Origin: Phoronis australis
Lineage: Eukaryota > Animalia > Phoronida
Length of the DNA: 64,000 nucleotides
Reading direction: 5' to 3'
Assembly: GCA_002633005.1 (NCBI GenBank)
Contig: NMRA01000634.1
Coordinates: 124,001 to 188,000 of the forward strand
Shown here in pieces: positions 7,329 to 34,300 of the stretch. Positions within the stretch are counted from its first letter, which is position 1; each line of letters begins with the position of its first letter. The position numbers and the translations under genes are program-made. The notes beneath the pieces are model-generated. The model was given only the letters and a program-made list of their open reading frames with translations, was not told the origin of the DNA and searched no databases.

Positions 7329-10300
7329 GTAAGTGGGAAGTTTTTTTTTGATAACTCAGAGACATTAAAAAACATGGCGTAGGAAAGAAATGCTAAGAAA
7401 CTGTTAACATGACATCTTTAACGGACTTTGAAGCAAAACGTGTAAACCTTACTTCATTCTGAAACTGCTTGAAACGAAGTAAGTTTTTAGTCACCATGAA
7501 ATTTTCTGAAATATTTTTTCTGAAAGTTTTTTGTTTCGCGCAAACACCAGAAAGTGTTTCCCATACGTTTCAACCAAGTACACACAACAAGATTAAGTGC
7601 TTTATTGTTGTACAGTCAAAAATGTTAGTAGGCTAAGCAACAATTGTCTAGATTACGTGGTCAGCAAAGTGTGATGTGTGTAATAACAATATTCTTTGAC
7701 CTGATTTACACCAATGCCACTTTAATTCCACTACATAACTATAAATCGTCGTGACAGACCGTCCGGAGTTGGTGTATGGTGCAACTCCGGACGGTCTGGG
7801 GTCAACAGAAAACCACAGTTCAACTGTGAGTTTACACCAATGGGACAAAAGAGAGTAGTTCTACTTGCCACGTCAGTTGCAGGTTTGCTTATCTCTTTTA
7901 TGGAACACAATGTATGACTGGGCAAAGCGTTTTCAAAATAATGTGGATAAATCAGCGGAGTGTGAGACCCCTGAGGTCCCTGTCAAGTCCCCACGACAAT
8001 TCTACGTTATGGTATGCGAGACTAGAAACTTACCCAGCGTTTAATAGTTTATTCCATGCGCTGCCTTTTTATTTTGATAAACACAATGAATGGCAACTCA
8101 ATTCATTTTGCAGTGGTGCTAATATCTGAATTTGAACAATTTCATTACTTTTAACAGGTTATTATTTTATAAAGTATTCGAGAAAATCGGTTGACACTAG
8201 TCCTGGTGACGAAGAGACACATTGGTCAGTGACACTGTCACAGTGTGAGCGCCTCTGTGCACAGTGGTCGCCATGCAAGTCATTTACCTACAGTGGCGGA
8301 GAAGGGATATGTACTCTATACAAACAAGACAGGAACTACTTCATAGGAGCCGGAGACTATGTCACCCAATCGGGAGTCGACTTTCACGACAGAGGTAAGT
8401 TTATTTGAGGTCGCAATTCAAGCACAGAGAAGAGTATCTGACTAGGAACTGGTGAGACTTGCTCCGGTTTAGCGTGATCCTTTTCATTTTGTAAACCTCG
8501 TGTAGATCAGGATTGTTCTAAAACACCCCTCGATCCGCGACTGGCTCTACCCACAACCCCCTGAACCCACAACCCCCTCGACCCACAACCCCCTCGATTC
8601 ACCACTTACAATACCCAAAACCGGGTTCGGCTCCGTCAGGTTATCGACTCACCTCGGACTTTGCTGAGTCAGGCAAGGTACTTGTATTAAGAACACTGTA
8701 CAACAGTGCACACCTGTAAAATAAGCAGAAGACAAAGCAGACGGACCGCCAAAGCCTAGGAAACATGCCGATGCTCATTTCGTCCCACAGCGGGACTGGA
8801 AGGCCGACGATGCCGATGGACAGGAATCACGAACTATTTTTCAGTTTGAGGGATCGGAGTGCGACAACAGCTTTTCCGTGTAAATGACTCCAACGGAACC
8901 AGTCCACAGGCTCGGGCGCATTTTCTGAAAATTGTACTTTCCACCTTATTTTATACTATTTGTGTATACGAGGTATGATCAATAGCAATTTGTAATCGTC
9001 CTACTGTGGCAAAATCACCCCATGAACATTTTTGTTGATGCTTTAGTATTTTGCTAAGCAATATATTGTGGGATTACGTCTCTAAAAATTGTCTCACCGA
9101 GTGTGAGATTCCGTGAATGACAAAGTCATTTAGTGTCATACCGCTATTTTGGTGTAATCGTCCTGGCTAAGAGAGATAAGGGGGAGGGAAGGAGGGAGGT
9201 TGAAGCCGGAGATCCTTTAAGGCAAAATCCAATTCATTGAGGATAACGTAATACAGGTAAGCAATAGAAAATATGATAATTATTATTTGCTAGTCGTACA
9301 CTTGACATACCGTTGGATGACAATGAAATCAATCGTGTATGTAATTCAAAACCAAAAATTAATAATTCCCAACGATTTTCATTGAATTTCGTGGGCAATT
9401 TGAAAATTATGCCACTGAAACACTTTAGATGTCCCAATCTAACATCGGAGAGTCTGTCATGAAACAATCTCTTGTTTTTGACTGGCACAAAAGATTCACA
9501 GATGCAAAGGACAGTCTCAAGGATGATCAGCTTACAGCCATGCTCTCAACAACAATGACGTCATTGTTGTAAGAGCCAAATTGTCGGCTGCTGGTCTATG
9601 AAAACTTATGGCTGACAGAACTTTGACCATGAGTAGACGTGTAATGAGATTGTAATCTCATTTGGAACATGAGTTTCTTTGAGGACTTGAGCAGGTGAAG
9701 GGTGCCTGCAAAACTTGTGGTAGGTCAAAAAGGAAACTGCATGAACACTTGCAGGGATCTCAGACAACCGTTGGCCTCATGTCCTGATCTTCTGTTAGTC
9801 ATCACAAGTAGTGATGAGTTGCGAATATACAGCTCATATTCTAAAACAAAATTTTATAGCTCTCAAGTAACATCTCCACCCTTTGCTCGCCCAAAAAAGC
9901 AAAGGTGCAATTAGGTACGTGACCTTAAGTATCGAGGACGCCTTGTTTAGTCAGCGTTCCTTTTGCAGTATCTTCAACTTGTGTTTCTACCTGTATCACC
10001 CAACCAACTATATCGTCGCCTATGTACTTGTTTTATAATTCTTTTGTGCGTGTTCGTTGAGTTCTCAGTGAGTTGTGTTTTTACACTCATCTTTGAACAG
10101 TTTATGCAATATTAATTTAGTTTTTCTCGCGAATTAACCAATGCTATTGAATGCGAAGATGTACTTTAGAGAACTGTGTAATGCACTCGTCATACGAGTG
10201 CATTACGCACGTGGATTACATTCGCTCTAACGAGAACATAGTCTTGTTCCTTCGCCGCCAGGTGAGAACGAGTAAAAATACACTTGTGTGAAGATGGCGA

Positions 10301-13300
10301 CGGGATGTGCAACTCTCTACTACTTAAAAAGAAGTTTGACACCTGTATGTAACTGTGTTCTTTACACTAGTATAAGAGAGTGCAATATAATCGTTCTCAT
10401 TCACCAAAATCGAGCAACCACGACTTCCAGATTCTTGCGTGCAGTATAAACTGACGATTGCAGCACTACTAAAAACAAGTGCATGAACCCGAGTGGCCGT
10501 TGTCCACCTGGCCGCGAAGGAGCTATGCACTTAAGAGCATTTCATTCGTATGACGTGCGCATGTCACTCGTATGACCAGTGCATTACACACGTCACGTTC
10601 TCAAAAGAACACGTCCGCGTTCCATATATGACAGCTCATCCTGTTTACTCTGCTAGCTCGGGAAGTTTTCTTCGCTAACAAATGGTGGACACACACATCG
10701 AACGTTTATGGTCTAAATTTGCATGGCGTTTAGTCCTATAATTTGTGTCATTCTGACCTGTCTACGTGGCACTGAATACACGAAACAGGTCAACATTGGA
10801 GAACTTTGTACGTTTAACTTAGTCCGACTCAAAAAAAAATATGTTATTACTTGTATGGGTGTTCATACTTTTGATTGTATGAGACCATATCCAGATATAT
10901 CTGGTGTGATGTCTTCATTTTCATAGTATCCAGAATTCTTTGCATTTTTTTTTCATACGCTGGTCTAAATGGAGATCAGGTTATATACTGACGTTGTCTT
11001 CCTGAGACAATCATACAATATATATTGAAGGAACTCAATGTAATTGTTTCGTTTCTTCACTGTCAAACCTGGCCCCCACAGCGTGCATATATATGAATCT
11101 TTTGGTCTCTTCTATATTTCAGTCACTAGCTGTTACTTCGACAACATTGACAAAAGTAAACTGAATTATGTGAATAAAACCACAACTGCAGCAGACTATC
11201 TGGTTTGCCAGCAACACTGCCTGAATGAAACAACGTTTGATTGTAAATCGGTGAACTATTACGCTAGCACGTCGACCTGTGAGTTGAATCATGGAAATCT
11301 AGACACCGTTACATCGTCCGTTTCATGGTATCAAGACTCAAGGTCACAGTACTATGGCAAGATATGCCCAGACAACCGTAAGCAAAACTTTTCTTGAACT
11401 TATCTCACAGTAACGACATACTCATTGACGTCTTCAATCTGGTCAAGCTCATAAGTTTCTGCGATTGGAATTGCACAGCAACCAGAAAGTTCTGGCAGTC
11501 ACTTTTATTTAGTGACATCCACTGACTTTACGTGGAAATATCAGCATATCCAGAAAAGTACTCAAAATGCTTCATACAGTCGGTCTTGACCCAATGAGAA
11601 AAATATCTAAACCGTAAACACTGACTGACTAAACTTTATTGCGTAATCTCGCAGTGTTTGTAATCTTGCCAATGTTCAATAACGGTTTCTGACACTTTAT
11701 GTTTCTCATTGTATTGTAGCATGTCGAAGCGGTTGGTATACGTGGCGCGGGCAGTGTTACAAGTTTGCCACCGAAAAAGCTTCTGTACAGTCCAACAATG
11801 CGTGGCTTAATGCCGTCGATGGATGTGCAGCGGAGTCGAGTGTGTTAACGAGTATAAACAGCGCGCAGGAAATGGATTTCATAAAATTCTTGGCAACGTA
11901 AGTTTTTGTTTGTGACTAAGAGTAATAGCGGGTAAACGCCCATAAGGGTGTTAGATGTAATTCCGTAATTTCAGCCTATTGATTGAGATGCTTCGATGAT
12001 TACTAAAAGTTACTCTCCCGATCAAAAAATTCAAAAAAATCATTTGGTGGCGGTAACCATGTTTTACTTTCCGCCTAATATCAAATCATTGTCTCCATTT
12101 ATCTGGAGCGTGAAAGTTTTTACTAGTTTGGAGAGGTCGTGTAAAAAAGTTAGCGAACATATACTATTTCATGAATAAACTCACGGCCATACTAATGTAA
12201 TACAGAAAAATAGCTGCCACTTTTAAATGCTTGGTCGTCTAGACTAGAATGTTGAATTACGAGAACAAACGGTCCCTAACAGATTGCTGCTGTTTCGTAA
12301 ACCAAGAGGTTTCGCACCAAGTATCGTGGGATTGACTGGCGTTACGGAACGCACAGCCGTATTCACCACAGCACAATTGAAGGTATAAAAAGTACTCCAA
12401 TGTGTCAATATGCAATAGAAAAAAATAATTTCACTTTTATTGCAGAAAATATTACCCGACCAGCAAGTTTTATATTGGCCTTTCATACGGCATCCATGGT
12501 AACGAGTGGATTGACGGGTCTGCGACTTTCTTCACAAACTTTGACCATGGTAAGTGTAACTATTTATCGCCACTTTTCGTCACGAAATCCAACACGACGA
12601 GAACTTTGCACGACCAAGTAAATTGATATTTTTGTAATTTAATAGCAACGTCGCGGTTTTGGACATTATCTTCACTGCGTCACAGCTAACCCGAATTGCC
12701 TATTTAACGACAGGAGGCAATACCATGTTCCATGGCTTCGAATCTAAATCCCGGTTCCTCATCAAGAGATTAAGCACTTGACGAAAATGGTCCGTACACA
12801 ATGTCCAAACTCCAACTCCGGAAACAAACTTCAGTTCCTGGCACCGGTCTCTGGGTGAGGAATCTGGTCTCCGGAACTGGAGTATGGCTACCAGAATGAA
12901 ACATATTCGTCGCGTATGTGGGGCGCTGGGGTTTCGGTACCAGGTAGTAGTTGGAAAGGTTAATATGATTGTACAGAATGTAGTTAGTCAGAGACGAGGC
13001 AATGAAGTAGCTTCCGTGATCTGAAGAGACTGAGATCCGGTTTTAGTTGAAGTTTTTTGTCATCTAGCCCCAGAATATACTTTCTAAGTCCGTTGCTGGA
13101 TCTGATTTTATGCAAATAGACGTTTACGCCTTATCTGGTCAATGATGTTTCATGCTCCTGTTAACATAGTCCTTGAAGACAGGTAGTTCCATTCCAATTC
13201 CTGGTGTGGCCTCGATAGTGTTCTAGACAAAGTTTTCCAGGCCAATCCTGTCATGAAACAGCGTCGTTTTGAGGGAGGCCAGTAACCAATTGTTTCCATT

Positions 13301-16300
13301 AAAAACTCAGCTACATCAATAAGTTAATTGAGCTACGGATGAGAAATAACGTGTGATATACTGCCGTCAGCGTGTCAGTGACCTGTCCGATGATCTTGAT
13401 AGCTCGAGAAAAATTTGCTAAGAACTTCAGGTGTGTGTTTTGTTTAGCTAGAGACTGGAAATCTAAACTGCTCAATACCACCCTCGGGATCAAGGCATAT
13501 TTTTATAACCGTCATTTCATGGAAAAGGACTTAGGAGCTGAATAGTAGTACTGTACAACACCCTTGCACGTAAGTCGGTTGCTTATAAGAGAAAATCTGA
13601 ATACGTCTGATTAAAAATTGCGAAGTCGAGAACATAATTTTAATGGACTTACGTTCTTTTAGAAGACCAGATTGATCGATTTTCACATCAATATTTCATC
13701 TAGGCGAATGATATCCTTCATTATCTAAATGGTAGTTGCTACACACAACACCTATTCGATAAAACCAATAAAGGCTCATAACATTATTCTCAGGATGAAA
13801 AAGAAATGAAGTCGGAGTAGTGTTCTCTTACGCTGGTCATTCGAGGAGCACTAGAATTGAATTAATATATCTTCGCGTCGGTAGTTCATATGCATGAATT
13901 GTCTGACATATATTAGGAAAAGAATGCCTGACAACGATTTTTGGACGACTCCTAGTATCTTTTTGCATACTTGGCTGTGTGCAATAAATCCTCTGCATGA
14001 CATTTGTTGAATTTGGAAAATGGATTTTTATGAAAGTAAAAGCGGATGACTAGGTTTTTTTCTCTGTACCTTTAGCATTTGTTTCCAACTAGTGGCCATT
14101 TTTATTTTTGGCTTCCGCCCGTCCGTCGGCAAAATCAATGGCAAAGTCTATTAAGAAAGTTGTTATATGAGTTCCTACCAAAAACGCATGACTGATATTG
14201 GTTTTTGGGACGGCTTTAACTTCTGTTGAACCCCATAGTGGCAAGTTTGCTGTCTTCGCGTTTGCAGCTGTTTCGCCATAACCCCCTGAAGGGTTAGCCC
14301 AGGAACCTCTCTTGTGAGTCCATAGAAATATGGGGCTTGTTGGACAGGAGAGACCTAAGGGACGCGTTGAAGGAGATAAGCCTAGAACGGAGAGAGTGCA
14401 ATCGGTGAAACGCCTGTCCGACGAGCACGCGCCGGACAATGATGGAAGTGATTAACAAAAAGTGGGCGAAAGAAGGTGTGCGGCCAGGGCGCAGGGCTCA
14501 ATGCAGGTGGTGGTCATTCCCACCGATCTGGAGAAAAAGGAAGTAGAGAGGGAACGAGGGAGGGAACTGGTGGCCGATTGGATGGACCTGGGGCTGAGGA
14601 GAAGGCTACCGCCAGAAATGCCCAAGGACGAAATGGTCACCGGGGAAGGCCGGAAGCCGTTACAGCAGTTGGAGAGGGTTGCACACGAAGTTGTCCAACC
14701 AACGAACGTAGGAACTGCCAAGGATGAAAACACGGGGCGACATGTAGAAAGTGATTGCCACTATAAGGGGTTATAATAAAATCCGAAAAAGACGATGGAG
14801 AATGCAGAGAAAATGAGTTAGCAGCACGAGTAGTTGAAGAAGGGTGCACTCAAACACGAGTATGGGGTGAAAAGTGGAAAAATTAGGACCAAAAACGTAA
14901 AAATGAAGAGAAAATGTAGAGTACAAACGGAGGTCTTGTAGACGACGAGTTAGGTGATTGAATGAACTAGACCACGTTAAACTGAACAAAGGGAATACGA
15001 GTGACCAATCAGGTGTCGAGTAGGGAAACGTATGAATACAAAAGTAGACCCTTGAAGCTATAAATAGAGATGAGTAATGCAAAATAAACCCTAAGGGTTG
15101 ACATAAAAATAAAGTGCTACATGGCAAAATAGTGAAGATAATATGCATTTAGCAGCTTAAATTAAATGTAATAACGTTAAGTGGATCGATAATTTTCCAG
15201 AAATTCCGTCTACGACAATTTTTTCATGTGGGCACCACATTCTTACATGTAATTGTACATTAAGACAAGCGATATAGTCGACTCTAAATTGTTACATTCT
15301 GACTATCTTGAGGTTTAGTATTAAAATTTGATAATTAGTGTTAATAAGATCATTTTTCTCAGCTAAGCATTGCTTATCTCAATCAAGTTCTCATTTGTTT
15401 TACTTACTAAAGAAAGAGAAGTAACATAAGAGAATGAACCAAATTTAGCTCTGTCAAAATGTAACATTAAGACACCAAGAATTTAAGGAAGAAATGAAAA
15501 ATATGATGACTGGCAAAAATACAAACATTCCGTTCAAAGCGCAGTTGTGTTTATTTTGGGGGCCAAAATTGTAAAAAATCTAATCAATGATCAAATTCTA
15601 AATCCCGCCATATTGCGCGAACTTCAGTGTTTTGACCATACACATACCGAACAAGAGAATCAGTTTGCTGTGATGACTCCAGTTTCTTTTCTTGTGTTAC
15701 AGCTCATGGAGTTACCAAGAAAGTTGTTTGTTACCCAAACCAACTGTCACTAAAATGTCCTATTGGCAAAGTTCTTCGTATACACAAGGCAAATTATGGA
15801 CGTACGTCATCTAACGTACCAAACTGCGGAGTAAATGTAAGTATAAGAGGCAATACAAAAATGAGGCTTTCAGATTCAAAACGATAAGACATAATAAGAG
15901 CCTCTCACCTCATTCATGACTAACCAATTATCACGCTATCAACAATGGTTCAAAAGTCAAGACAAAATGCTACATCCTTGCTTAATTATTCCTACACTTC
16001 AAATTCTGTAATTTGCGGTTAAATTTCAACAGTGCTTTGAATTAAAATGTTTTTTGAAAACTGGCATATTCAAATGTGCGCATACTTGCTGTTTTATGAG
16101 GATTATAATAATTCAGGGCAATGGTGGTAGTATCGACGGACCTAAATTACTTTTAGAGGAGCAATTTTTCCAGGAATCACATCGACAGTGCACCATCGAA
16201 CACATAAGCACGTGTTCAGTTTGACTTTGATGTCATAAAACACGATATCCTGTTGGCTGAGAACTGAGAACTTCAATACACCCCACACGCACACACACAC

Positions 16301-19300
16301 AACACTGTTCCGCAGCCGCCGTTGAACCAAAAAATGATCTTTCGAAATAGTGAAAGCCATTATGAATGAACGAGAAAACTTTATGGGTTACAATATAATT
16401 GTTTACGCAACGTCTGACTTAGCCCACGTGGGACTAACTATGTTCACCTTGCATTTAATTTTCTTCACCAAAGACGCACAGAAATACGAAGTCCAACAAC
16501 GATTTCAAGAATTCGAAGATTACAGTTTCCCCAAACCTTTTTACCACTCTGAAGATTTTCTGTAGCCTGCTTACGACAGTCGCCCTAGAAGAATACTCAT
16601 TGCCTTTTTCATGCTTGCCCAAAATATGAATATCCCTCCTATTAACAGGAAATCCGATTTACACAGTGTCAGGACTCGACAAATCTTCGACACTGCAATT
16701 TTAAAACAGTGATATCGATCAAAAACGCGAAACCAGAATTACTGGCAATGTTTCACTCATGAGGGTCAGCCTGCTCAGAGAGCGACAGCTTCCCTTCCCC
16801 AGTTGCCCGCTGTCGCTCATGACAAAGGCTTCCGAACCATAGCTCTATAGTGAGCCAGCCAACCGCACAAAGTTTAACATTATAAGAATAGATAGCCGTT
16901 GCACAGTAAGAAATCAAACTAAGTTTAAAAAATAATGTTCTAATTATTATGAAAGTCAATGCAGGCACAATAGAGACGGGTATACCAAATCAGATAAAAG
17001 ATAATTTTTCCCAGTGACTTTCCTGAACGGCTGGCCCTAAAAAGCACGAATCCAAGCTTTTCGATATTTTGCGAGATAAGAAAGAAGCAAGGTGAGTGTC
17101 CGGACGGCTCACTATTATTACCATTTTCACACTTTTAGTGTACAAAATATACATTTTCCCTCCCCCTCACCCTCAAGTACCGAAACGTTGATGTTTTTAT
17201 TAATCCGATCGGTGATCTCTCAGTAGCACAAAAGCGGAACGGACGATATCGAAGTTTTCTCCACGCCAGCCCATCTTTAATTCCTTCTAATTCCTGAGGA
17301 TACACCCAGGGGATAATGTACATGGTTGGATCGTATAAAGTTCCCTAATTCCATAGAGAATGTACGCCAAACCGTAACAAATTCAAATATTTAACAATAA
17401 GCAATCATACACTGACAATGTTATGTATTGATTCTATTGGTTTTAATTTGATGTCGAGAGAATAAGAAGTTTTTGAGTGACGGACGGGTTATACTAGATA
17501 CTGTAAGTACCATAGCCGAAACTACTAAACGGCTGTAATATATCCTAGATCACGATGTGTCATGGAAATGGCGTCACGTAACTTAGTAACGAAGACTGAA
17601 CCTCGTAATAGAGGCACAGATTGGACCCCTCTTCACCACATTTCTCAGTGTCTTTTAATTCCACTGTAGGGGTAAGGCAACACGTTGTCCATCTTATTGT
17701 TCAAATGACCTGGTGATAGTTCGTAACAAATGCACAGCGTTGAAGAGACACATATCAGACCAGTTAACTCACGTGATATTCCAAATAAGGGGTAAATGCA
17801 GTCAGAAACTGGACTGTACTATCGGCTTGCAACAAGCCGTCTGCACGCTGAAGGCTAGAAGGAAGATAAGGAGGTTTTGCAATCCTACCACTTTTTAACA
17901 TTACAATTTGATTGAGTCAACAGCGTGAAAGTTCCAGATAATTTCTAGATCACCCATTGATTTATTTCAATGAAACTTGACACAATGCGCGCGGGCACTA
18001 ATTTAGTTTTGGTAGGATTTAACCCCTGGAACTATCTCTAATGGCTATTTTGTCCGACTGTCCTGTTGTTTCCATATCTCAAAAGCTTCTGGTCATGTTT
18101 TAATGATGAAATTTGGAACGCTAATTTGTTACAAGCCACCTTTCCAGTGTTTTTAGGAACAGCATTTCCGGATGATATCTAGAGAACTGATTGAGAGATT
18201 ACAAGGAAAATTAACGTATGAATACGTGATGACATTGCGTCGGCACAAGTTATTTTTGGGGAAATTTGATAACTGAAGCAGTTTGGTCTTCAAAAGAGGA
18301 TTTTTAGTATTTCGGAGGAAAAGCGTTTCAAGATATCTTAGTGAATGAATTGTCAGTTTCAAGTATGTGACGGCAATGGGCAGATACCAGTCGATTTTCG
18401 GGCGGATTTGACTACTGCAGATAATACTTTCAGCACATTCCAACAACTATTAAGCTCGTTTTTTCGCTTTGTATCGATCTGCCAAACCTCATGATTGTTG
18501 TTTTTGACTAGACCTGCAAATATTGGATACATAGTGTTATGTCCTTCTGCAGCATTTCTTTGTTAAAAATCTTAAAAACTGTACCCATTTAAACTTTTTG
18601 ATTTAATGTTAGTTTTAAAAGGTCAGGTACCAACACTTTGTGTCAGTTCTGGCTCTTGTAGCTACCTCTTATAGTCCAATTGTTGTTATGCACCTTGTAA
18701 CTTATGTGATACTAATGAGCACCCGAAGAAACATACCGTTCAAGGTGCAATGTGGACGCCTGTCAATGTTTTGCGTTGAACTTATTCGCAGAAATACATG
18801 GTCGACTGTATCTCTCCGTCCAGTTTCACCATTATTCACAACGCTTGTCACAACAAGACTTCGTGCTCAGTTGAACTATCAGAAACAGTGTTTGGTGATC
18901 CCTGTGTTGGAGAAAACAAATATATGGAAGTGGACTACGACTGTGTTGAAGGTAAGCTAAGCTACATACACTCATGTAGCAACTTCTCATTGCTACTCGT
19001 AAGGTAGCCTGGAACTCTTGTCAAATATCTACAAAGTTATAAAATTTGGTTCTGCAAAAGTATAATTTTTTTAAAATATGTCAGACGATTGACTGTGGGT
19101 TTGTTTAAAAGGTAGCTATGCTTTGAGATTATGCGTAGATGGAGAGTGAATAATCAAATCCAGTAATTAATTTATTATAATTAGACAAATGAAACCTATT
19201 GTTAATTAAGTAATCAACTACAAAGAGTAACTACGCTAGCGCCTTCCTTAAAGATTACTTTAATCAGAACCCAAAGTTGTAAACACCTTCTAAAAATAGA

Positions 19301-22300
19301 TTTTGACGTTAAAATACATGTCAACAAGTCTGACCCCATGATTTAAAAGTACATATGCACAAATTTTGGCAACTTAAAATGGATCTATTCTTACTAATTA
19401 CTTAATCAATATTTATTCTGACAAATAAGCTCTTCCTCAAGAAAATACTTCTTAAGATTTTCTCAACATGGAAGACTTAAATATTGATTAACGCTTAGAT
19501 CTATTACCCAGTTTCCTTGAATCTTCAATACCCTAACCTACTCAGGTAATCGGCACCAACATTCTCTGAGCCTTTGATAGCTTCAACTTTAAATCGATAA
19601 TTTTGCAAAAACAAGGCCCACCTCATGATGCGTCCATTGACTAACTTGCATTTTTGAATGTAAGCCAGGGGTTGATGGTCAGTATGAATGATAAATTCTT
19701 TACCATACAAGTACTTCGCAAATTTTCTGATGGCAAATACAATAGCCAAACATTCCCTCTCTATGACAGAGTAATTCCGTTCCCGAGGTAACAATTTCTT
19801 ACTAGCACATGCTACTGGGAACCTGCCATCACCATACTCCTGCAACAAAATACAGCCTATACCAGTATCGGACGCATCAGTCTGAACAATAAAAGGTTTA
19901 CTGAAGTCAGGCAATCTCAGTATGGGTGCTCTCGTCAGCAGATCTCGAAGGGTGTCGAATGCATGCTGCTGAGCTTCTTCCCATTGCACGGTGTTAGGCT
20001 GTTTCTTCTTTGTGAGCTCAGTAAGTGGGACGGCGATTTCAGCGAAGTTTGGGATGAACTTCCTGTAGTAGCCAGCCAACCCAATAAAAGAACGAACTTG
20101 TTTCTTTGTTCTGGGTTGTGTTGCATCTCAGATGCGTCCCAGCTTTTCTTCATCCATTGCCAGGTGCCCTTCACCGACCACATGTCCAACGAAATCGACG
20201 GAACGAGATCCAACTGAACACTTAATGGGTCGAATCGTTAGTTCAGCCTCTCGCACACGTTGGAAGGTGTCTCGCAAGGTGGCAAGGTGTTCAGTCCAGG
20301 TCTTATTATGGCACAGAATGTCATCCACATAATGTTCTGTATTATGTGCTCCTGCCAACATCTTCCTCATCATGCGGTTGAAGGTCACTGCCGAATTTAC
20401 CAGACCAAATGGCATCTTTACGAACTTGGTACTACAAACGAGGTCTTAGGCCGTGATTCTTCGCCGACAATGACTGGCCAGTATCCTTTACTTAGATCAA
20501 TCTTCGTAAAATACTGGTCTTTACTGATCTTAGCCATGATGTCATCAGGATTGCCCATCGGTTCCGAGTCGAACTAGGTGATGGCGTTCAAACGACGAAA
20601 ATCGATGCAGAATCGATTTGAACCGTCCTCCTTCTTCTTCCACCGGAGAGTTATAGGGAGCATCAGATGGTTCTGTGACTCCACACTTTAACATGTTGTC
20701 AATTTCCTCCTGCACAACCGACCGTGTGGCATATGGCAGGGGATACGGCTTGACTCTCATCGGCTCTTCACTGATGGTCTCAATCTTGTGCTCAACCAGA
20801 TGGGTCGTACCTGGTACTTCACTAAAGATGTCAGAGTACTCTTCTAGCAGACTTATCACCTCCCTTTGTTGGCTAGTAGTGAGCTCGTCTGATTTCTTGA
20901 CATCTTTGTACGTTTCTTTTTGGTTTGTCGATTCCAGCTCTAGTAGATGTTCATCATCGACAACACCAACTTCATTGTCCATTTCAGGCTGAAGTACAGC
21001 TATGGCTGCGATGTCAGAATTCTGATCTGTATCATCTTTACTTGTAGCCCCACTTTGGTCACGAGATATGTAGAGTTTCAACAGGTTGGCATGGTATGTC
21101 TTGGTCTTTCCACCAACCCTTACTTTGTTGAGTACCTCGGTCACTTCATAGGGACCCCTCCACTGCAGTAGCAGCTTGTTACTGTCAGGTGGTAACAATA
21201 TTAAGACTTGGTCTCCTACTTTGAAGCGACGATCTCGTGTCTTTTTGTCATTATGGTGCTTGTATGCTTCACAAGCATTTCGTAAGTTTTCCCGCACCAG
21301 TTCACATGTCTCTTCCAGACGATGTCGCAAGTCGAGGACATACTCATAAGTATTCCGTACGTCTGGTGCTTCATTGCCAGTCCACAATTCTTTTAGCACC
21401 TGCATGGGCCCTCGCACGGTTCTACCATACAACAGTTCAAATGGCGAGAAACCTGTGCTAACTTGAGGTACCTCTCGGTAGGCGAACAGTACTGCTGGTA
21501 AGTACCGGTCCCAGTCTTGTGGACGCTCTTGGCGCATTTTCTTACGCATACTCTTCAGTACACCGTTAATACGCTCACACAATCCATTGCGTTTCGGATT
21601 GTACTGAGTGGTGAACAGTTGCTTCATGGATATCAACCGTGCAACCTCTTTCAGTACTTTTGAGGTAAACTGTGTCCCACAGTCACGAAGCATCTCTCGT
21701 GGAAAGCCAATTCTACAGAAGGTTTCAAACAGTGCTTCTGCAACTCGCTCAGCTTCCATTCTTGGTAGAGGGACTGCCTCCGGGTATGTTGTGGCATAGT
21801 CTACGATGGTAAGAATGCACCGGTTGCCTCTGTCTGTGATTGGCGACAAAGGACTAATCAAATCAACAGCGATACGCTGGAACGGTTCTTCCATAAGTGG
21901 CATCTCACCCAATGGCACTTTAGAGATCCTGCCCTTAGGAGTTGTTCGTTGGCAGATGCCACATGATCTGCAGAAACAATTTATGTCACTGCCAACTCCT
22001 GGCCAATAAAAGCTACTGGCTATTCTATCACTGGTCTTCTTCACACCAAGGTGCCCACCAACAATTGACTCGTGAGATAGCGTCATAACCTGTTGTCGAT
22101 ATTTGACATGGACAACTATCTGACGCAACTCTTTGGTGTTATCAGCATACACTCGGTACAAGACCCCCTTCTGCTTCTCATACCAGTATTGACCTCTACC
22201 ACGTGTTCTTGCTGGTTTGTCTTTCTCAACAAGTGCCATGAGCTTACGTAGGGAAGGATCATGTTATTTCTCGTCCTTCAATTTGCTGACGTCGAGACTT

Positions 22301-25300
22301 TCCACTCCGGATGGAGTCACCGCCAAAGGCTTAATAGGTTTCTCTCTCTTCTTAGCCTGTGCTCTAGTAGTGACTGCGGACATGACACTGCGTTGTGGCT
22401 GCCAATTGGGATCAGGATCCTTGCTGACGCCAACAGCATTTCCTATGATGAGGTCGTATATTGGTGTTCGCATACACATCGCCTCGATTTCACCAACGAA
22501 GTAAGGAGTGTCTACCTCAATCCTCGCTATGGGGAAGGATCGTGCTGTCCCATCTATTAACACACAGATGTGTTGTTTCCCCGTCAGTTGACTTTCTTTG
22601 ACTAGGGACGTCTTCACCGCTGCACTACTGCATCCGGTGTCACGCATCATGCGTACTTTTGTTTCATTGACGTAACCGTCACAAACGGGCATATTGTGGT
22701 CAGCAGGAGGCTCTCTGTGCTTGTCACAGGTCCCTGTCTCTACGGGTATCGATGTCCCATCGACTAATTGCAGACAGCCATCAACTATGAGCTGCTCTAT
22801 TGGACTACCCTTTGCTACCACAGCTTGACACATTACCGACTTCTTGGTGTCTTCTGTCTTGGCCCGTTGCTGCTGCGAGGCAGACGACTGCTTACCTGCA
22901 GCGAATCTTTTGGACTGGAAGTCTTTCATTCCGCAGTCCCTTGCTAAATGATCTTTCCGATGACAATTGAAACACTCTTTGTCACCCTTGTTTCTGGTCA
23001 TTGACGAACGAGGAGTTTCTCTCCTTCCTTCTTTTGTGTTGATTGGCGATGCCTGTCTTCTGGCTACCTGTCCCAAGTCTTTCTTTGCGAACCCTTTGCC
23101 CAACGAACCAGTACAGTGGGCGTCCATGTACTGTTGAGCAATGGCCGACATCTCGTCGAAGGTCTTCGGTTTCCGTTCCCTCAGGAATACAGACATCTCA
23201 GGATGGCATACTCCCAGAAACTGTTCTCGGATCAGTAAGTCTCTGAGTCCATCATAAGTCGCCTCGACCTCCACCAGTTGTGTCCATCGGTCAAAGAACT
23301 TTTTCAGTCTTGCCCCGAATTGGAACACATTTTCACCCTTTTCAGGCTTGGACTCTCTAAACTTTCGTCGGAACCCATCTTCGGTTAATTCATACCTGTG
23401 CAGCAGCGCCTCCTTAAGTTGGTCATAGTTGTTAATTTGGTCAGACGGCATGTTGTTGAACACCTGTAGGCCTTTACCTGTCAACAATGTACTCAAGTCC
23501 ACAGCCCAGTCCGATTTGTCCCATTTCTGGCTTGTGACGAATGTCTCAAATCGGGCTAGGAAGACATCCATGTCGTCCACGCGCTCGTCGAACCTTGGCA
23601 GTTTGGGACGACTAGTACGTACACCACTGCTTGAAGCCCCACCACTAGGTGTTGCTTTGAGCTCAATTTGGAGTTGCAGTGTCTTCTGCTTCTCAATCTC
23701 AATAGCTTTGGCCCGAGCTTATGTTCATACTCGGCTTGCTCTAGCTCTCGTTGATGAGCACGTTCTGCTTGTTCCCGTGCAAGCTCTGCCTTTTCCAGCT
23801 CTCGTTTGTGGGCGCGCTTTTCACGCTCCGAGGCCTGCCGAAAGAGCTCCTCTGCGCACTTCCTTAACTCTTCACCGGTATAACCGAATTGTTTCGCTTG
23901 CGTAATATACTTTTCAAAATCCATTTTAGAGGAAGGGGTTTATTCCCAGAATGCACTTTATTAATTAATATTCAAACAGTAATTACAGGATTCAAAACAA
24001 TTCAACACAACCACGTAAACCTTTATTTAAACTCTCCCGGACTGGCCCCCAAATGTCAGACAATTGACTGTGGGTTTGTTTAAAAGGTAGCTATGCTTTG
24101 AGATTGTGCGTAGATGGAGAGTAAATAATCAAATCCAGTACTTAATTTATTATATGATAACCCCTAATTAGACAAATGAAACCTATTGTTAATTAAGTAA
24201 TCAACTACAAAGAGTAACTACGCTAGTGCCCTCTTTAAAGATTACTTTAATCAGAACCCAAAGTTGTAAACACCATCTAAAAATAGATTTTGACGTTAAA
24301 ATACATGTCAACAAGTCTGACCCCAAGATTTAAAAGTACATATGCACAAATTTTGGGCAACTTAAAATGGATCTATTGTTACTAATTACTTAATCAATAT
24401 TTATTCTGACAAAATAGAAGAACAGTAGAACTTAATCTCTTATTTCTTTTCAATCTTCCGCTAATTGGGTAACGTGAACATGTCTTTCCATAAATTCATG
24501 ACAAATAGAGATCGACGTTCATGACAAGACAATTGTATGAATAGCACAATCAAGTTCGGCAATTCGACAGCTTTTACCTTACTAGAGGGCGCTCGTGTAC
24601 CCGTGGTGGTTGATTAAACAGCCTCGATTTCGCGAGGACTTTAGTACATGGTGAAATAGATTGAAGCCGTGCCAACTGAATCTGAGATTAAGTGAAAAGG
24701 GTGCTTCTACGAGAAGGAGGAAGTCTGACCTTATAGCAAGGTAAGGTTTGTGATTATTTTTAACGATTGTTTGATACATCGACTTCCATGGTTACAATAA
24801 TAAGATGCCTGTCAACTGAGGTACTGGCCTATGTTGGCTTTGCCGCAGTCGCCCGTTGGGTTAATCATTGTTTTTTGTAATGCGTGTTACGATACTTGAC
24901 GTAGCGCTCGGGGTCTTTTCGTACAACAAAGCAGTATTATTAATGTTCGGAGTAATTTCGTACAGTTTGACCAGTGAAAGTTACATCAATAAATGCTGAA
25001 TGTTTATGCTGACAACTCGATATTGGTTATTAGTTAGATTACCTAATACAGGTTATTATGACAAATATCCATAAGACTATTTGTTTACTCCCTGTGCCGT
25101 TCTGAAATCTATTAAATGGTGACATGGAAATATATCATGTTGTTTTTCACCTGACTTTTGGTTTTTAGCCTTGAGGGCCAGTACCGCGCAGAGAAGATAA
25201 ACATCCCGTCTGCAACCGCCCCTGGATGGACAAAACTGGGTTTAGCAGGTGACTGCAGCTAACTAGCAAGAACTTCCTGTCCAATGCAGATCTGTCGTTA

Positions 25301-28300
25301 ATCCTGCTTTCCATATCGGGAACCAAGAACAAATCCTTTAAAAAATGACAGCTGTATTTTAAAAAGGTACGTAATTTGTTTTGTTAATCCAGGACCTTAG
25401 CGGAAAGTTGGCTTAGTGGGTTGTGTTTGTAAAATTTGATGAAAGTTGAATGTGTGGAAATAACAGGTAATAGTGTCCGGGGGAAAGAACGTGGTGAAGT
25501 AAATCTTAACTTTCACGAAGTTCTTTCACGTTTCATGAAAATGTCGTGCTATCCACTGTAAACCCATAAAAACATATTACATTTTCTGAATTCTCAATGA
25601 CTGAACAGTCTCAAATCATGCCTTGAAACGTGGCAATTTTTTTTATAAAATCATGCGACTGCCATTTTTTGTGAAAATTGCATTTTTGCTTTGAACATAG
25701 GAGTGAGGTCGTATTTGAACATAATATTCTTACTGCCAACACACAATAAATGGATGGTGCCGCAGGATTTTTAATTACTATTAAACAACAGAGAGATTAA
25801 CCATTGTTTTTTAAATGACCCAAGTCTTAATATCTTCTATCAGAAGTAAATTAAATAAAAAAATCTGAGACATGGTTCTTTCAGCCTTAGACAATAAGTG
25901 TGCTAATTTGGCAAATTGACAGACCTATGAAAGGGTAATCGGTTTCAAAACTGCTGAAAGTATCAAAAATTAAAAGGCCTGAAAATGGGTGGCAGAGGTT
26001 TGCCACACTATTGAAGTTGTCTCAAATAACTTGCATATTTTGTAGACAAGTGCTGCATTTAAAGAATTGTTATGGCGAGCAATGAAAAATAAAGATGTAG
26101 TTTTTACAATAGTTATTATATACACTCTTGCTTTCTGGAAATTATTATAATTTAATTTTGGGTGGAATTGTAGACCAGTTACCATATGTTTTCGAAAAAC
26201 AAGTGCAACATTTTTTTACCCAAAATGAAGTACTAAAGTATTTACGTTTCAATATTTGTTCCAGGTTAAGCGACATTCTTAAGGACAATTCCAGCCTCAA
26301 CATATACAAGCTGTGTTACTCGTTTCTCTTCCCACAGCATCTCCACACACCACCAGTGCTACATGGCACAATGTACAAACCAGTGGCCCTGGAGAAATGT
26401 GAATCGCAGCACTACGTTACCATAAGAAAATGTTCCCGTGGACTGTTTGAGTGCGAAGAGGCACTACATCTGGCTGCTACATCAGCCACCCTCGTTGGTG
26501 AGGAATCATGTATGGACAACAATGACTTATTTCCCTTTCTGGAAGAAACCTGATGGACTGAAGCTAAAGAAGACATATTAACACTCCGGTCTAGTTCAGG
26601 GTCAGATTTTGGGCACAGAGCGTGTCAAGTGTTATGTTGTTGTGCTTACCTTCAAGTATTTACATTCTGGATGTTGTTGAGCCTGCAGGAGGTTACAATA
26701 AGGAACGCCACGTGCCGAAATTAGACCATTTTACAAGCGATTCTATAGACCGTTCGTAGCCAAACCCATTGAAACTAGATCCCATTGAAATTAAATCCAG
26801 AATATCTGGTTTACTTTCAGAAGAAAGGCTTTTACACTAATGGTAAAAACTTTTCAATTTAGTACATTCTTTATGGAAATGACATTCAGTGACTGCAGTG
26901 ATTGTCTCATTGTCAGTGGAAAACCAGTTAATGTTACACTTTGATAATTGAATTAAACTTTCATGAACTGACAAAGTATGTCAGTAATTATTCAAACCAC
27001 AATATTTCTTCAGTTTTAAAGCCCCATACAGTGCGCTTGTGCTTTTTATAAAGCTGAAATGATTACTGGTTATGCTTGCTAATTTTCATTTTCCTGCTGA
27101 CCTAATGAAACATCCAGTGATCAAAATGAAGTACCGGTATTCCGTTTTATGCCTTTGATTTGTTCATGTGTGTAACTCTTTTTAGAGCTTTCTTAAGTTT
27201 TGTGTTAACTTGTCTCTAACAAAAGTTCCACGTGCAAGCAAGCCATGCCTTCAATTGCAGGTAGCTGGATGAGAATCTGCTATGTACAAGATTTGAGATT
27301 AAACAATAATCAGTGTACTTAAAAGCAAAATGGCAAACTGAACAAGCACATCCATACAAAGGGGCAACACTGTTAGAAACAATTGTAATTTTTCCAATCC
27401 AACAGAGTCTATAATCAGGGATATCAAGGGTTGACTTTCTGAACTGAGGTGTACAGTTCTCTCAGGTTATTGCTGAAGGACTGCTTTTCACTTTGTCGAA
27501 GGGAAAATAGATGGTAATGCGGCTGGTTTCAGTCGTTTTCTCTCTCCCGTAACAGAACAATCGAAGAAATATTAAAATATAAAAGAAAACACAAGACAAA
27601 ACTATTTTCTTTAGTCAGAAGACACTTGACATTTCGTCTCTATGTTTGTAAGTAGAAACTAATAAATCTCCTCCCCCAAAATTGTGTATTGTTCACTACA
27701 CCTAGAATGTTTTTCTGATCTCAATAAATAAAATACATTCCAGGTGTCAATATTTATTCTATGTTATGAACTTTTGAATATCCCATTCATGTTATTTCGG
27801 TAACTTATCTGCTAGTCCTGGGAGTGGGGTCCACTGAAAAATAAGGAAACTCACTCATCTAAAGAATTTTATTGGACATAGCATTGTTTTGAAGAGTAAC
27901 TGATGTGAAAAAGTCGCCCTCGACTTCTGAGCGGCACGTCCCTTACACCTCTTACATTGGGAACACTCGCACCCATCACAATATGTGCTGCTAGCCTACC
28001 ATTTGGGTCCCTTGTAAGTTTCTGGAAAAAAAAATTCGTTCCACTGAATAAACCCATTATTCAGTGGGGTAACTGGTGGGGATAACATCACTAAACGATG
28101 TCGATAGAAACTAATTACTAAAAACTTACTAAGTATCGTGATTATATGTAGTATCTCAAAGGAAATGCCGCATAGAGCACACGTGGGATGTGAAGCTTCG
28201 GCATCCACACATTTTTTCACTTGGTTGACTATGTCGACCGCAATTCTACACGCTTGTAATAACCTTAGGTCTTTTGGGAGATTGTAACCACCTGTCGAGG

Positions 28301-31300
28301 ATTTGCACCCGGGAATTCAACGATAATAAGGCTTAGCGTGACGAAGTAACAATTCCATCTTTTTACCAGCGGTTTACATGCAGACAGCGACGCATGCGCA
28401 ATTCAATCACTTTTACTACAGAAGTGACACCACGAAGAGAATTCGTCGAATAGCCCCATTAAATGTGATAAAAATGTTCAAGAACAAATATTGCAGTTTT
28501 CTAAATTGTAGAACACTTCACAAACAAATCTTCTCAGAGTTTTGGCGAACAGTTTATCAATCACATATCTGAAAGATTCATTTGAGTCCTATCATAGGTT
28601 ATAGACAACAGACATGTACTATAGTCTATGTTCCTATCAGCCATCTTTGTTCCAGAGTTGGCCAAATTTGGGTATTTTTTTAGGATTTCACATAATGCTT
28701 ACGGCTATCGATGACTTTCATTTCTTATAGTGAATATTCTCTGCTAAATTTATCCCATTTCTTTGTAGAATCCAATTTGGTTCCGTTTTAAGATCCCAAA
28801 CAAAAGGCTGCAAACCTGTCACCAAATAACTCGCGAACAGTTGCGTCTGTTCGTGTTCGCGCCGACAAACGCAGCATGCGCGTTTATCCTGACCCGAATG
28901 TGATGCCACATCATGTGACGTGAAGTCTAACCTTTGATCAAAAGATCTACGGGCACCTCTTGTGGATAACACCACGTAGTCACGTAATGTTTGCGCGGTC
29001 ATCAAGACACTAACTGTTCACGTTTTACAAGTTGTCTACTTTGAATTTATGCCACCTTGGGAATGGTAAACCGAATATTGTCGGGGTTTGATATCTGGAC
29101 CTATAGAGCTATTGTATGATTTGTGGCTATTAAAACGAAGTAGAAAACATAAAGTAAATAGATTAAAGTAGATGATAACTTTTAAATCTTTTAACTGATA
29201 CCAGTCTTTGGCTACAGCAATAGAAAGACTTTAAAAACACCAGAATAAGCATAGAAATTCACGATGAAGCAAGACGTTTCGCTTTATTGCGGTCAAAGCA
29301 TCTTGCAGCTATGATAACATGTTGTTTGTATCGCTCAAATGCGCACTGTGGGATAACGTACTGCACACCTTCTTGAACACTTGCAGCCGATTTCATAAAG
29401 TTGGTTTAAAGTTAAACTAAGTTTAAACTGGACTTAGACCAGGTTTAATGATAATCTGCATTTCATAAAAGTGGTTTAACTTTTAGACCAGTGGTCTTGT
29501 AAAACCTGGTTTAACTCCAGTTTAGACCTGGTCTAAGTCAGTTTTCATTTCACCAACGAAGTCTATATTCTTTAGACCTGTATTAAAATCTTAAACCATG
29601 TTTAACCTTAGACTTGGTCAGACCCAGGTTTAACTGTTAAATATGTCAGACTTGCATGGTATAGGTACAACTGAACGATGCCGCGGTGTGCAATTGCGAC
29701 GCAGTTTTAGAGTGAAAATGGACTATTTTCATTATTCAGGTTTAATACGACACGAGAACAAACGTAGCAGGGGCGGATCCAGGATTTTTTAAAGGAGAGG
29801 GGACGGTCAAGGACTTTTTGAAAGGGGGGACCAAGTCAACAATTTGAAAATTATAGATTTGATATCATTAAAATCAAGGGAAAAGGGGGGGCTCCGGACC
29901 CCTTGACCCTCCTGGATCCGCCTATGCGTAGACCAGTACGTGCTGGAGTGTGACTTGCGGAATCCTCAGAATACGACTGGTCGAGCAGGTCTCATCGTCG
30001 CAAGCCCTACGGATTTGACTTACGACAGCATTTCTCTGATTCTTTGGACTGAGTTCCACCTCCACTGTTCTCCGATTCAATGTTGCCGGGAAGGGGTCTT
30101 GCCAACCCTTTGGCCGCGAAAAATAAAAACTAAAATGACACGGAAATAAATTTGGGCATTTATCATGTTACATCTAAAGGTGAGCATGTTCTTATATAAA
30201 GTGGGTGTGTTGGGCACACAAATTACATTTTTCCTCATGAGAAAAGCTTTTAGACCTTTGTCGTATATGTCTGCACTGATTCTACTGGTGTATGCCATTC
30301 TACCCACGTGATCAAGGTTTCATTGAAGCACTTCAATAGTTTCTTTGTTGGGTTTACCCAGCTCGACACAGTGGGGTGCATTTGATACTTTCAACCTGGT
30401 TCTACTGACCCAGCTCCCTGGTCTAGCAAAACCAGGCTTTCAGACTCTTAAACCATGTTGGTGAAATGTAAGTTAGGCCTGAAATTAGACCAGGTTTAGG
30501 AAGACCAGGTTTAAGTCTTAAACCTGGTTTTGTTAAACCGCCTTTATGAAATCGGCTGTTGATGTTTAATCTGTACTCATTTGATGATGCTGAAACAGAG
30601 AAACGACGTGTGTGGTTTACCATGAATTTCTATGTTATCCCAGTAATTTTTAGTTTTTTAACATGCATAAATCATACTGAAAGACACATTTCTTTGTTCT
30701 CACCGGTTTAAGACGCGACAAATTTCATTAACCGAAATTGGAAACCTTTTGTAAATTACAGTCATGTACACTGTATGTATTTTGCCTTTTTTACCATCAC
30801 TCTTCAGAGTTATTATTCATCGAATTCAAAAGTTAAATACAAAAATACTTTTTTGAATTCGATTAACCTTAAAAGTTCGTGTTCTGTTAAAAAAGTGTCA
30901 TATCAAAATGCGTTGAACTTAAATCTGAGTGCATTGAAAAACGTGTAATTAAGCTTTAAACAAAAATGAAGATGAAAGTATTTTCAAGAAAAACATTTAA
31001 AATTCCTATAACTAAGTTTTCCCTAATTTGTGGTACTTCTAGTTTATTTGCCCCAGAGTGAGCTGTGTATGTCGGCTTCGGAATCTTTTCTACTATAAAT
31101 TTCTATATGAACTAATAAAATGGCGCTCATTTAGTCGACTTTCGCCAACTTTCATAAAGTTATTCTCGTGGTAAACTCTAAGCTAAGTTAAACTTCGACA
31201 AAGAAATGTTGTTGACAGTTAAGTAAGGTTCCTTCGTCTCAATATTTTCTTCGCAAAACCTGCAACTTCCCGTCAACTTTGACTTACATATTGTCTATTG

Positions 31301-34300
31301 CAAAAAATGTTTTGCACCAAGAAAATTAACCGCAGACAGATTGTTAAACGGGGAGAGATTATATCAACTTAATATTGCTTCACCTTCTTAATACTTTAGA
31401 ACAAATTCGTATTTTTTGCAGAATTGAACACTTGTACTCTGTTAGACCCGTTGGCTGGTTTCGCTTGGAAAGATGTATCGTGTAACAAGTCCGACGTGGG
31501 ATTTGTATGTAAAAAAGGTGAGGAAATTTGCTGATAATAATCAATACAGCCAAGAAATACTGGCAAGCACATTATGCCGGTTTTTCTTGAATCTATTTTA
31601 AACATGCAATCCGTTGTCAAAGACGCGAACTTTTGATTTAGACCATATACTGCTATAAAACTGGCCTGAATTTCTGCCTTGTATTTGAGAATGAATTTCT
31701 GGTCTTCTCAAAATATGACTCGTCACTTTTCTTTTGAGACCTTGCTGGGCACATAGAATAATATAAGCCAACATGTATTGCCTGGCATCAAACAGTACCG
31801 AAATCAGAGTTTAATAGAAGCCTTGAATCACCTCTCATTTATTCAAGAAACAATTTGAGAACACATTCATACAGGTAAGAGGTCTAAATCAACTTTTACG
31901 GAAGGCAGATTGATATCCCCCTTTAATTCTTACGTAACTTTGGAGAATAAAAGGCTTCAAACCCACATTTAGAACCAGAACCATGACCGTTTGTAAACAA
32001 TCCTTTAAAATCCACACCAGAAGGTCCACTTTTAAATGATGTGTACGTGTACCCCTTGACCAAATGAGGGCATGCTAATTACATTGTAGGTCCACAACTA
32101 ATTTTGCAAGGTCAGGTTTACTCTCGAATCTAGAGTCGGATGTCGATCTCTGACATCTCTGGTTCTCTATTGGTCAATAAAGGATGAGTTCAGCCGCTGT
32201 AGATAAAAACACAATTTTTTTCAACCTTAACTGCCGTAACTTGAATAACAATCACGATGATAAACGCGGATTGTGATCACCGTGCCATCTGCTCACGAAA
32301 CGTAAGCAGACCACTTTCTTGTGGTTTACAGTACAACACTGTGCTTCTATTTTTGTATCTCAGAAAGGTTAGCTGTGCAATCAAAAGCACTGAGCAGCAG
32401 TTGATAGAATATTTGTCTCAGAAGAACAACACCAAATAAGAGAAATAAGAGACAATTTGAAATGGTGAAATACGCAAACAAACCAAGCGTAGTGCGAGAA
32501 AAAATCTGATCAAATGACCTCGTTTTCGAAATGTAAGCAAGACTCAAGAGCTAGTGATTGAGGCTGTTTTCTTCCCTGTCTAGCTTTCTTTACGTACTTG
32601 AATACCACGCTCTTGTGCATTTACTGCGCATGCGCAACTCAAATTCTTGGACTCCTCTATGATGAAAGTATTACTTATGTTCTCACCTTGCGGAGTTTCC
32701 CGTTGATGACCTTGAACGTGTCAACCATCATCTTTAATAACCATTATTGCATATGGTGCTATTTCCAGCTCGCCAGACCTACTCCCCTTTGGACTGCACT
32801 TCTGTTAGTGGAAATAACCAGACTGCGACATGTCCCAAAGGTAACGTACACCTCAAATGATAACTAGTTCGTCATAATGACATTTTCGATCATCTAGTTA
32901 TCTTTTCCTTTTATTGAGGATCGGCAAGAGGTTTGAAGACATTGTGTGTAAAAAATTGAATTGTTTTTACTGCCAATATAGGACCATGCCTCTGTCGCTT
33001 AACTCGACAAATGTTCGTTTTGTTCCCAATGGACGAATTTTTACGTTACATGTTTGCTAAAATAGACCTTCGTGCCACTGAGCAATCAGAAAATTTTGCA
33101 TACATCTATAACATGCGTCATACATTGAAAATTCGTGCTGTTATTTGTTAAAAAAACTTGATTGTACACACTGCCCCGTGCGCCTCATACAATACAAGTT
33201 GATGCAAATTCTTAATGATTAGAGTCATACCGCGAATCCAACACTATGATATCGGTTTTACATCTTACGACTCCTAAGACACTCGATTCTTTTGCGATGT
33301 AGGATCGGAGGTAGCAGAGACGTTAAAAAGATGGAGTAACTGAACATCTTCTGGCGTGTCAAAACAATGAGGGGAAGATCGTGCACAAATCGTCCGCGTA
33401 CCTACCACGTAAACCAATTTCTGAACATTTTCCGACAATCGCCGGCCGATCTTTTAAGTACCGGGCGACATTGTTTAAAATCAATGTCGCCCGGTACTCT
33501 GCTGGCGTCCAGCGATTGAGAAATCGTCCGAGCATCGGAATACTTTCAATTCTTCTCTGTTGCACCGATTAGTTATTTTTGACTCTGATGCCCACCACAC
33601 GCTCCTAGTCACCCAACTTTCGGCCAATACGTCCATTTTCACTCAGGCAGTCATCAGAGCTTGGTTGGAAGCTTTATGTAACTAGGTCTATGTCATAGGT
33701 TCACCGCTGCTCAACTGATCCGATAAAAATCTCCCCATAGACACTGGGAAAGATCGGTGATAGTCCCCTTCGGCATAAGTCTTTTAATTCGCACTTACGC
33801 GTCTCTCACAATAGGGCGCTGACGTCAAATATCACCAATTGCTGATTCGATGAAAAATCACCCAATCGTGCTAAGCATCGGGAATAACGATATAGAACCC
33901 AATCAGCAGTACGAACCGAGCATCGCCCGGTATGCGACCAAGGCATCGTAATTCACGCAATAACAACTAGACCTCTCGTGATTCATTTCTTATTGATAAG
34001 GCCTCTTCCTAAATTTCAGACTTCCCACAGGGCGTCGCCTGTCGATGTTCGTGTGCTAATGGCCGATGGAAACATTATCGACGCATATGCGACTGCTCTC
34101 TCTGCAGCTCAAACGCCGTTAGTGTGGCGCGCTGTTGCAAGCCACACTCAGGCTATTCACCCGGCCCCGACTACAGAGCCTCTGTTGAGTGCGTAGAAAA
34201 TCGACAAACACCCCTAATTGCGGGACCCAGTGCAACTTGCCCATCAAGTAGGTAGACTTGCCTTTCCAGAAACTTGAACACATAGTCCATTGTGGAAATA

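Follow-up and report, generated by a model that had tools for sequence, protein, structure and literature searches.

A phoronid gene model that places a complete SUEL domain within a C-type lectin domain

Introduction

Most exon shuffling yields domains strung end to end. Can it also carry a whole lectin domain into the ligand-binding loop of another lectin domain, and what would the resulting protein bind? The question is raised by a gene in a 64,000-nucleotide stretch of DNA from Phoronis australis (assembly GCA_002633005.1, contig NMRA01000634.1, positions 124,001 to 188,000 of the forward strand), which was analysed whole and is called the window here; all positions are given in window coordinates. 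A sequence-only reading of the window had proposed that a complete SUEL domain, the fold of rhamnose-binding lectins (RBLs), sits in the long loop of a C-type lectin domain (CTLD), that it arrived by exon shuffling and replaced a Ca-dependent site with a galactose/rhamnose-type module, and that splicing might switch it. We find that the placement of the SUEL exons between the exons of the CTLD holds as a gene model at the DNA level, and that the SUEL domain is, with good probability, nested in the CTLD of the mature protein as well. The evidence is a single gene model.

Results

The SUEL exons lie between the exons of one CTLD

Rebuilding the gene exon by exon from the window yields ten exons on the + strand (7277–35870) that are open throughout and encode 483 residues. 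All nine introns are GT-AG, with phases in the order 1, 1, 1, 2, 1, 0, 1, 1, 1, seven of the nine being phase 1. The start of exon 4 at 11720 and the end of exon 8 at 31517, with GT-AG introns and an open frame between them, are exact as proposed. The predicted layout begins with a signal peptide and two PAN domains, continues with a CTLD into which the SUEL domain is set, and ends with a resistin head. Exon order, phases, frame and domain matches are read directly from the DNA; Pfam was run on single exons rather than on the whole spliced product, and exons 5, 8, and 9 had no match.

Exon 6 (15703–15836) encodes the first half of the SUEL domain, comprising cysteines 1–3 and YGR, with Tyr in place of Glu after cysteine 1 (Pfam SUEL_Lectin positions 1–22, E 0.004). 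Exon 7 (18792–18951) encodes the second half, comprising cysteines 4–8, DPC, and KY, and ends in a phase-1 donor (positions 33–80, E 4e-13). Together the two exons measure 294 nucleotides; the introns on either side are phase 1, and the one between them is phase 0. They insert about 98 residues between CTLD strands beta2 and beta3. The domain is complete: against a profile built here, exons 6 and 7 cover 87 of 87 positions and all eight cysteines (E 4e-25). The profile comprises 31 distinct uninterrupted domains found by pattern in 17 of 79 metagenome loci, a redundant set picked by likeness to exon 7. All marks of the SUEL/RBL family (PF02140) are present, namely eight cysteines, YGR, DPC, and the loop-2 Lys. 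The PDB matches of exon 7 (12 of 12) and of exon 6 (12 of 12) are rhamnose-binding lectins or latrophilins, and the identity of exon 7 to its best matches reaches 52%.

The host domain is spread over exons 4, 5, and 8, which between them hold the core cysteine pairs C1–C4 and C2–C3, a WIGL-type strand, and the beta4 Trp. Exon 4 (11720–11897) encodes the N-terminal part, with the first strands, both helices, and cysteine C1. Its Lectin_C match is weak (positions 3–33, E 0.03, 15.4 bits against a gathering score of 22.6); in the PDB its best match is the PLA2 receptor (E 2e-8), 80 sequences match at E ≤ 1, and all 60 of those listed are C-type lectin-family chains. Exon 5 (12446–12549) carries, by its motifs, strand beta2 (YIGL, the WIGL equivalent) and the start of the long loop (WIDGS), and ends in a phase-1 donor; alone, it retrieved no lectin in the PDB search. 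Exon 8 (31422–31517, phase 1-1) is assigned as the C-terminal part, with C2, WKD, C3, and FVC with C4, from PDB matches, its cysteine pattern, and the model described below. Specifically, 4 of its 5 PDB matches are CTLD ends, all weak (E 2–8), and its cysteine pattern occurs once in the window; 8 of 300 shuffled versions of the region also contain it. In the ESM Atlas, CTLD fragments stand at ranks 2, 3, and 5 (scores 0.76–0.81), a lead only.

Among the metagenome loci, the SUEL domains of L009, L010, L017, L033, L037, and L044 end in a phase-1 donor just past the last cysteine, and in L017 and L033 the donor offset equals that of exon 7, in line with SUEL as a mobile phase 1-1 module. The intron survey of these loci is too crude to place the internal intron of the domain.

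Exon 8 is predicted to close the fold begun in exons 4 and 5

Fold closure was modelled. A complex model with the peptides of exons 4, 5, and 8 as three chains scored 0.85, against 0.08 for the best of three controls; the runs share at least 97% of contacts, and the partner predicted local distance difference test (pLDDT) values are at least 88. Among calibration pairs, 51 of 78 solved ones clear the mark used, and so do 2 of 108 mismatched ones (71 of 105 and 2 of 126 for eukaryotes); that calibration is unlike a three-peptide job. Among the best contacts, the exon 4 helix cysteine (C1) touches the last exon 8 cysteine (C4), and the YIGL strand lies between strands of exon 8, the usual CTLD arrangement. 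The model, made of the core without the SUEL insert and passing by likeness to solved lectins, supports the proposal that exon 8 completes the fold of exons 4 and 5. It shows that the three exons are compatible parts of one CTLD, a result about their fit and not about their joining in the cell.

Both domains depart from their families at the sugar site

In Ca-dependent C-type lectins, EPN or QPD in the long loop and WND in beta4 supply the ligands of Ca site 2, and the long loop is the variable part that bears EPN/QPD (PMC6468738, excerpts). Both products that the gene could encode, with and without the SUEL exons, have 0 of each motif, and the beta4 strand reads WKD, as the sequence-only reading had observed; the CTLD thus lacks the classical marks of Ca-dependent sugar binding.

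The SUEL domain has C-Y instead of C-E, again as observed earlier: Tyr follows the first cysteine. All 31 domains of the profile set have Glu there, as do all 8 PDB domains that show the position, and Glu at +1 from the first cysteine is the mark of a rhamnose/galactose RBL. In latrophilin-1, according to the excerpts of PMC2430599, the Glu at position 42 forms two hydrogen bonds with the sugar, its replacement by Asp or Gln (E42D, E42Q) increases the rhamnose dissociation constant from 1.8 to about 140 mM (about 80-fold weaker), and E42A and E42R abolish rhamnose binding; the same excerpts favour non-carbohydrate ligands for receptor RBL domains. The description of the insert as a galactose/rhamnose-type module is thus not borne out, Tyr standing where Glu is required. 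On these residues, a plain galactose/rhamnose module is unlikely and an altered glycan site is possible, the other pocket residues being kept. One sugar site is unlikely to have been exchanged for another, because the SUEL domain has Tyr where Glu is needed, and since both domains are without the usual sugar-binding residues, the ligand is likely not a simple sugar. Nor is it supported, as history, that a Ca-dependent site was replaced: the part that would bear EPN is missing, but its loss may have preceded, accompanied or followed the insertion, and the host loop may already have been short and Ca-free.

The introns around the SUEL domain hold no further CTLD parts by pattern or frame scan

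Extra CTLD exons in the introns flanking the SUEL domain, which would make two separate CTLDs of the apparent one, were looked for. On the + strand of introns 5–7, patterns that do recover exons 4, 5, and 8 gave no CTLD-start, CTLD-end, WIG, or W.DG match, and one loose helix pattern, at 16069, is the only such match. Of 120 intron frames that were at least 30 residues long and contained a cysteine and a possible AG..GT, none matched Lectin_C or SUEL. Nothing in intron 5 resembles a signal-peptide first exon, the best hydropathy among 4 candidates being 0.89, against 3.19 in exon 1. The window contains only two N, at 40495 and 47024, both outside the lectin gene.

The sole duplication within the gene is the long terminal repeat (LTR) pair of a retrotransposon on the − strand of intron 7 (19079–24411), outside the protein. 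Its LTRs measure 345 and 358 nucleotides, match at 335 of 345 aligned bases (97%), and have identical 5-nucleotide flanks. The element makes up 5.3 kb of the 12.5 kb of intron 7. RNA reads from related copies fall on it.

Exons 6 and 7 are skippable in frame only as a pair

Joint skipping of exons 6 and 7 keeps the frame, as proposed, and gives a product of 385 residues with 18 residues from the Trp of WIDGS to the next cysteine. Skipping exon 6 or exon 7 singly breaks the frame, with truncation at 302 or 321 residues. The exon 6 and exon 7 donors match 8 of 9 consensus positions, on par with most other donors of the gene, a score reached by 11 of 1151 GT sites in 12560–31400. The proposed splice switch is not supported: exon 8 is equally skippable in frame, the exon 6 and exon 7 donors equal most others in strength, and in-frame skippability, which is expected where 7 of 9 introns are phase 1, was rejected as a sign of regulation.

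Four RNA runs (X1–X4) were mapped at 95% and 80% likeness, the 95% mapping covering 18–19% of each of X1–X3 and all of X4; a joint was listed only with at least 3 reads. At 95%, none of the four runs has any depth in the exon 4, 5, 6, or 8 bin, depth in the exon 7 bin is 0–0.04, and every listed joint lies at 25688–29864, inside intron 7. At 80%, run X2 has about 213, 84, 56, and 142 bases in the bins of exons 4, 5, 6, and 7, X1 has traces in the exon 4 and exon 7 bins, X3 has none, X4 has a single contig signal, in the bin of exon 5, and the exon 3 bin is empty. The X2 traces are a few reads less than 95% alike, in bins that include intron; exon-free bins also reach 0.05–0.19, and a paralog or intron repeats are possible sources. 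These traces are compatible with a read across the exon 5–6 junction, yet are no evidence for one.

Flanking exons and the downstream gene

Exon 1 (7277–7328, + strand) provides the start codon and a hydrophobic, signal-peptide-like stretch (17 codons; best 9-residue hydropathy 3.19) and ends in a phase-1 donor. Exons 2 (8158–8394, PAN_1 E 6e-9) and 3 (11123–11377, PAN_1 E 1e-10) each encode a PAN/apple domain and are phase 1-1.

The resistin head (32769–35870) extends beyond the interval 11720–31517 considered earlier. Exon 10 (35707–35870), which encodes its second part, a short two-cysteine tail, and the stop codon, matches Pfam Resistin (PF06954; E 3e-6, 28.1 bits against a cut-off of 25, positions 50–88) and RELM-beta (E 1.5e-4). 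Exon 9 (32769–32840), with two cysteines 11 residues apart, is likely the first part of the head, given exon 10 and the fit of its frame and phases. In the C-x-C-x-C run, Ser takes the place of one cysteine, leaving the head short of the full ten cysteines.

A search with exon 10 in the ESM Atlas gave nothing useful, and the single phmmer match of exon 10, a Ser/Thr-rich repeat protein with lamin-tail domains, was rejected as compositional. Against a set of 5.8 billion proteins ("longer" lengths), exons 7, 10, and 4 gave 1, 1, and 3 candidates, none of them scored.

Downstream lies a second + strand gene of PAN exons (about 37065–63575), running off the window, with PAN_1 matches at 37065–37181, 37538–37675, 39076–39330, 42812–42958, and 63334–63585. 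Two of its PAN domains seem to be split by introns, one possibly by about 17 kb (42958 to about 60153, by eye), and at 42149–42220 the gene contains a candidate small exon, phase 1-1, that has two cysteines and no Pfam match. Outside the lectin gene, a near-identical tandem duplicate of about 600 bases surrounds the N at 47024 (46410–47620), a possible assembly overlap, and two inverted copies of a repeat of about 900 bases lie at 54700–55640 and 60860–61700 (by eye).

Discussion

We consider it moderately probable that the gene encodes a secreted PAN-PAN-CTLD(SUEL)-resistin protein in which a SUEL exon pair lies within one CTLD, the CTLD serves as a pedestal that holds the SUEL domain outward, and the ligand is no simple sugar. 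The proposed nesting at the long loop is supported, as is its origin by shuffling of a phase 1-1 module, shuffled domain exons being biased to phase 1-1 (PMC4284660). The two-exon module may have landed in a phase-1 intron of the CTLD long loop; since the SUEL domain has an internal intron, the transfer would have been at the DNA level rather than by retroposition. Two features may explain how the insert is tolerated: the long loop is no part of the core, and the ends of the SUEL domain would be close together, leaving its pocket at the opposite pole. Strands 1, 5, and 3 of the RBL fold make up a single antiparallel sheet, with the pocket at the beta1–beta2 turn and loop 2 (PMC2430599, excerpts); because first and last strands thus adjoin, the ends should be close and the pocket should point away from the host. 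The CTLD core would then be the likely pedestal, with the SUEL domain at the usual ligand-binding pole of a secreted recognition or adhesion protein. Exons 6 and 7 would normally be included, the ligand may be a protein or an unusual glycan in mucus, in matrix, or on microbes, and the odd cysteine count of the resistin part (11) may permit links between chains.

Several observations weigh against this reading. The junctions 5–6, 6–7, 7–8, and 5–8 appear in no read of the four RNA runs, which leave the exons essentially uncovered. The complex model covers the peptides of exons 4, 5, and 8 without the insert. The scan of intron frames is weak, in that the frames holding exons 4, 5, and 8 gave no Lectin_C match either. 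Short queries of low power found no whole-gene relative, and the 79 metagenome SUEL loci are without CTLD pieces, any match to CTLD, PAN, or resistin in them being no better than E 0.2. Intronic insertions make up less than 10% of animal domain gains (PMC2926785). On the ligand, the Glu rule derives from one domain, that of latrophilin-1, and the SUEL pocket keeps the Tyr of YGR, the Gly after DPC, and the Lys of KY.

Three other explanations of the locus were weighed. In one, that of the sequence-only reading, the nesting is real and the SUEL domain is a working Ca-independent binder of rhamnose, galactose, or a related glycan that has taken over from the CTLD site. Its fold is intact, with YGR, DPC, Gly, and KY retained, and the insert occupies the usual place of EPN/QPD. 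An aromatic residue beside the sugar pocket could also stack on a sugar ring. The missing Glu makes this unlikely: it supplies two hydrogen bonds, its replacements D and Q leave binding near 140 mM and A and R leave none (PMC2430599, excerpts), and no domain of the 31, nor of the 8 shown in the PDB, does without it. Another possibility keeps the exons and doubts their use: exons 6 and 7 may be an optional cassette, giving nested and short-loop CTLD forms, or may be mostly skipped, the SUEL domain being a recent passenger. Here the loss of Glu could reflect relaxed selection, the 18-residue link left by joint skipping is in frame, and the modelled core assembles without the SUEL domain. We think this rather unlikely, given that both exons must go together or truncate the product, that 8-of-9 donors are rare among GT sites, and that phase symmetry is general in the gene.

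The nesting might, finally, be only apparent, the product of an assembly join, of a separate same-strand SUEL gene lying in an intron, or of unseen exons that complete two CTLDs. An assembly unchecked by DNA reads, 18.9 kb of repeat-rich sequence in introns 5–7, and CTLD exons short enough to be missed by Pfam all leave room for this. It is nonetheless improbable: the gene is free of N, with the LTR pair as its only internal duplication, the phases chain exactly 1-0-1, the introns lack CTLD patterns and intron 5 a signal-peptide-like exon, and a strong donor seven bases past the last cysteine closes exon 7 as it would an internal exon. 

A bolder extension of the preferred reading, a SUEL domain held within one CTLD, is that the long-loop phase-1 intron is a reusable socket by which this lineage sets whole binding domains into the recognition pole of CTLDs, and that joint skipping of exons 6 and 7 switches one secreted protein between SUEL-tipped and bare short-loop forms with different ligands. 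We regard it as quite improbable; if it were true, relatives would bear other passengers, or none, at the same intron.

What the preferred reading would mean is that intron boundaries mark a route into the ligand-binding loop of another domain, with the host CTLD core left, by the model, able to fold after the entry. It would be a natural precedent for the CTLD loop as a display site, and the resistin head gains a mosaic context of invertebrate type. Split CTLDs are easily missed, Pfam being blind to two of the three host exons here, and more may sit unannotated in invertebrate genomes.

Comparison with known systems

A SUEL domain within a CTLD was not found in the open-access literature, judged by titles and the starts of abstracts, nor was a PAN-PAN-CTLD-resistin layout; the excerpts of PMC514892, PMC8878817, and PMC3269628 describe no SUEL domain within a CTLD.

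The two lectin folds are known from one polypeptide elsewhere. REJ proteins carry a CTLD and a SUEL domain, and in PKD1-like 2 and REJ proteins, which are large membrane receptors, the two stand side by side and are not known to be nested; neither is known to have a PAN or resistin domain. Resistin is a small stand-alone hormone, its ten-cysteine head preceded by a helical tail. The phoronid product shares with PKD1-like 2 and sea urchin REJ the presence of both lectin folds in one protein, an RBL domain being noted in PKD1-like proteins (PMC3269628 and PMC2430599, excerpts). With resistin/RELM (PF06954; PDB 1rh7, 1rfx) it shares the cysteine-rich C-terminal head, but here one cysteine is Ser, the CTLD comes directly before the head, a two-cysteine tail is added, and the whole is a 483-residue mosaic. 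With SUEL/RBL domains (PF02140; PDB 5h4s, CSL3 2zx0, latrophilin-1 2jx9) it has the eight cysteines, YGR, DPC, and KY in common, whereas Tyr replaces the sugar-binding Glu and the domain is embedded in another domain instead of standing in a tandem string. The nearest counterparts of the host are CTLDs without Ca site 2, namely snaclecs (PMC6468738) and CBCP and group V short-loop CTLDs (PMC514892), which, in the excerpts of these sources, have the same core and cysteines with a long loop that varies. The EPN/QPD and WND ligands are missing there as they are here; in those proteins the loop is shortened or domain-swapped, whereas in the phoronid gene model it holds a whole foreign domain of about 98 residues.

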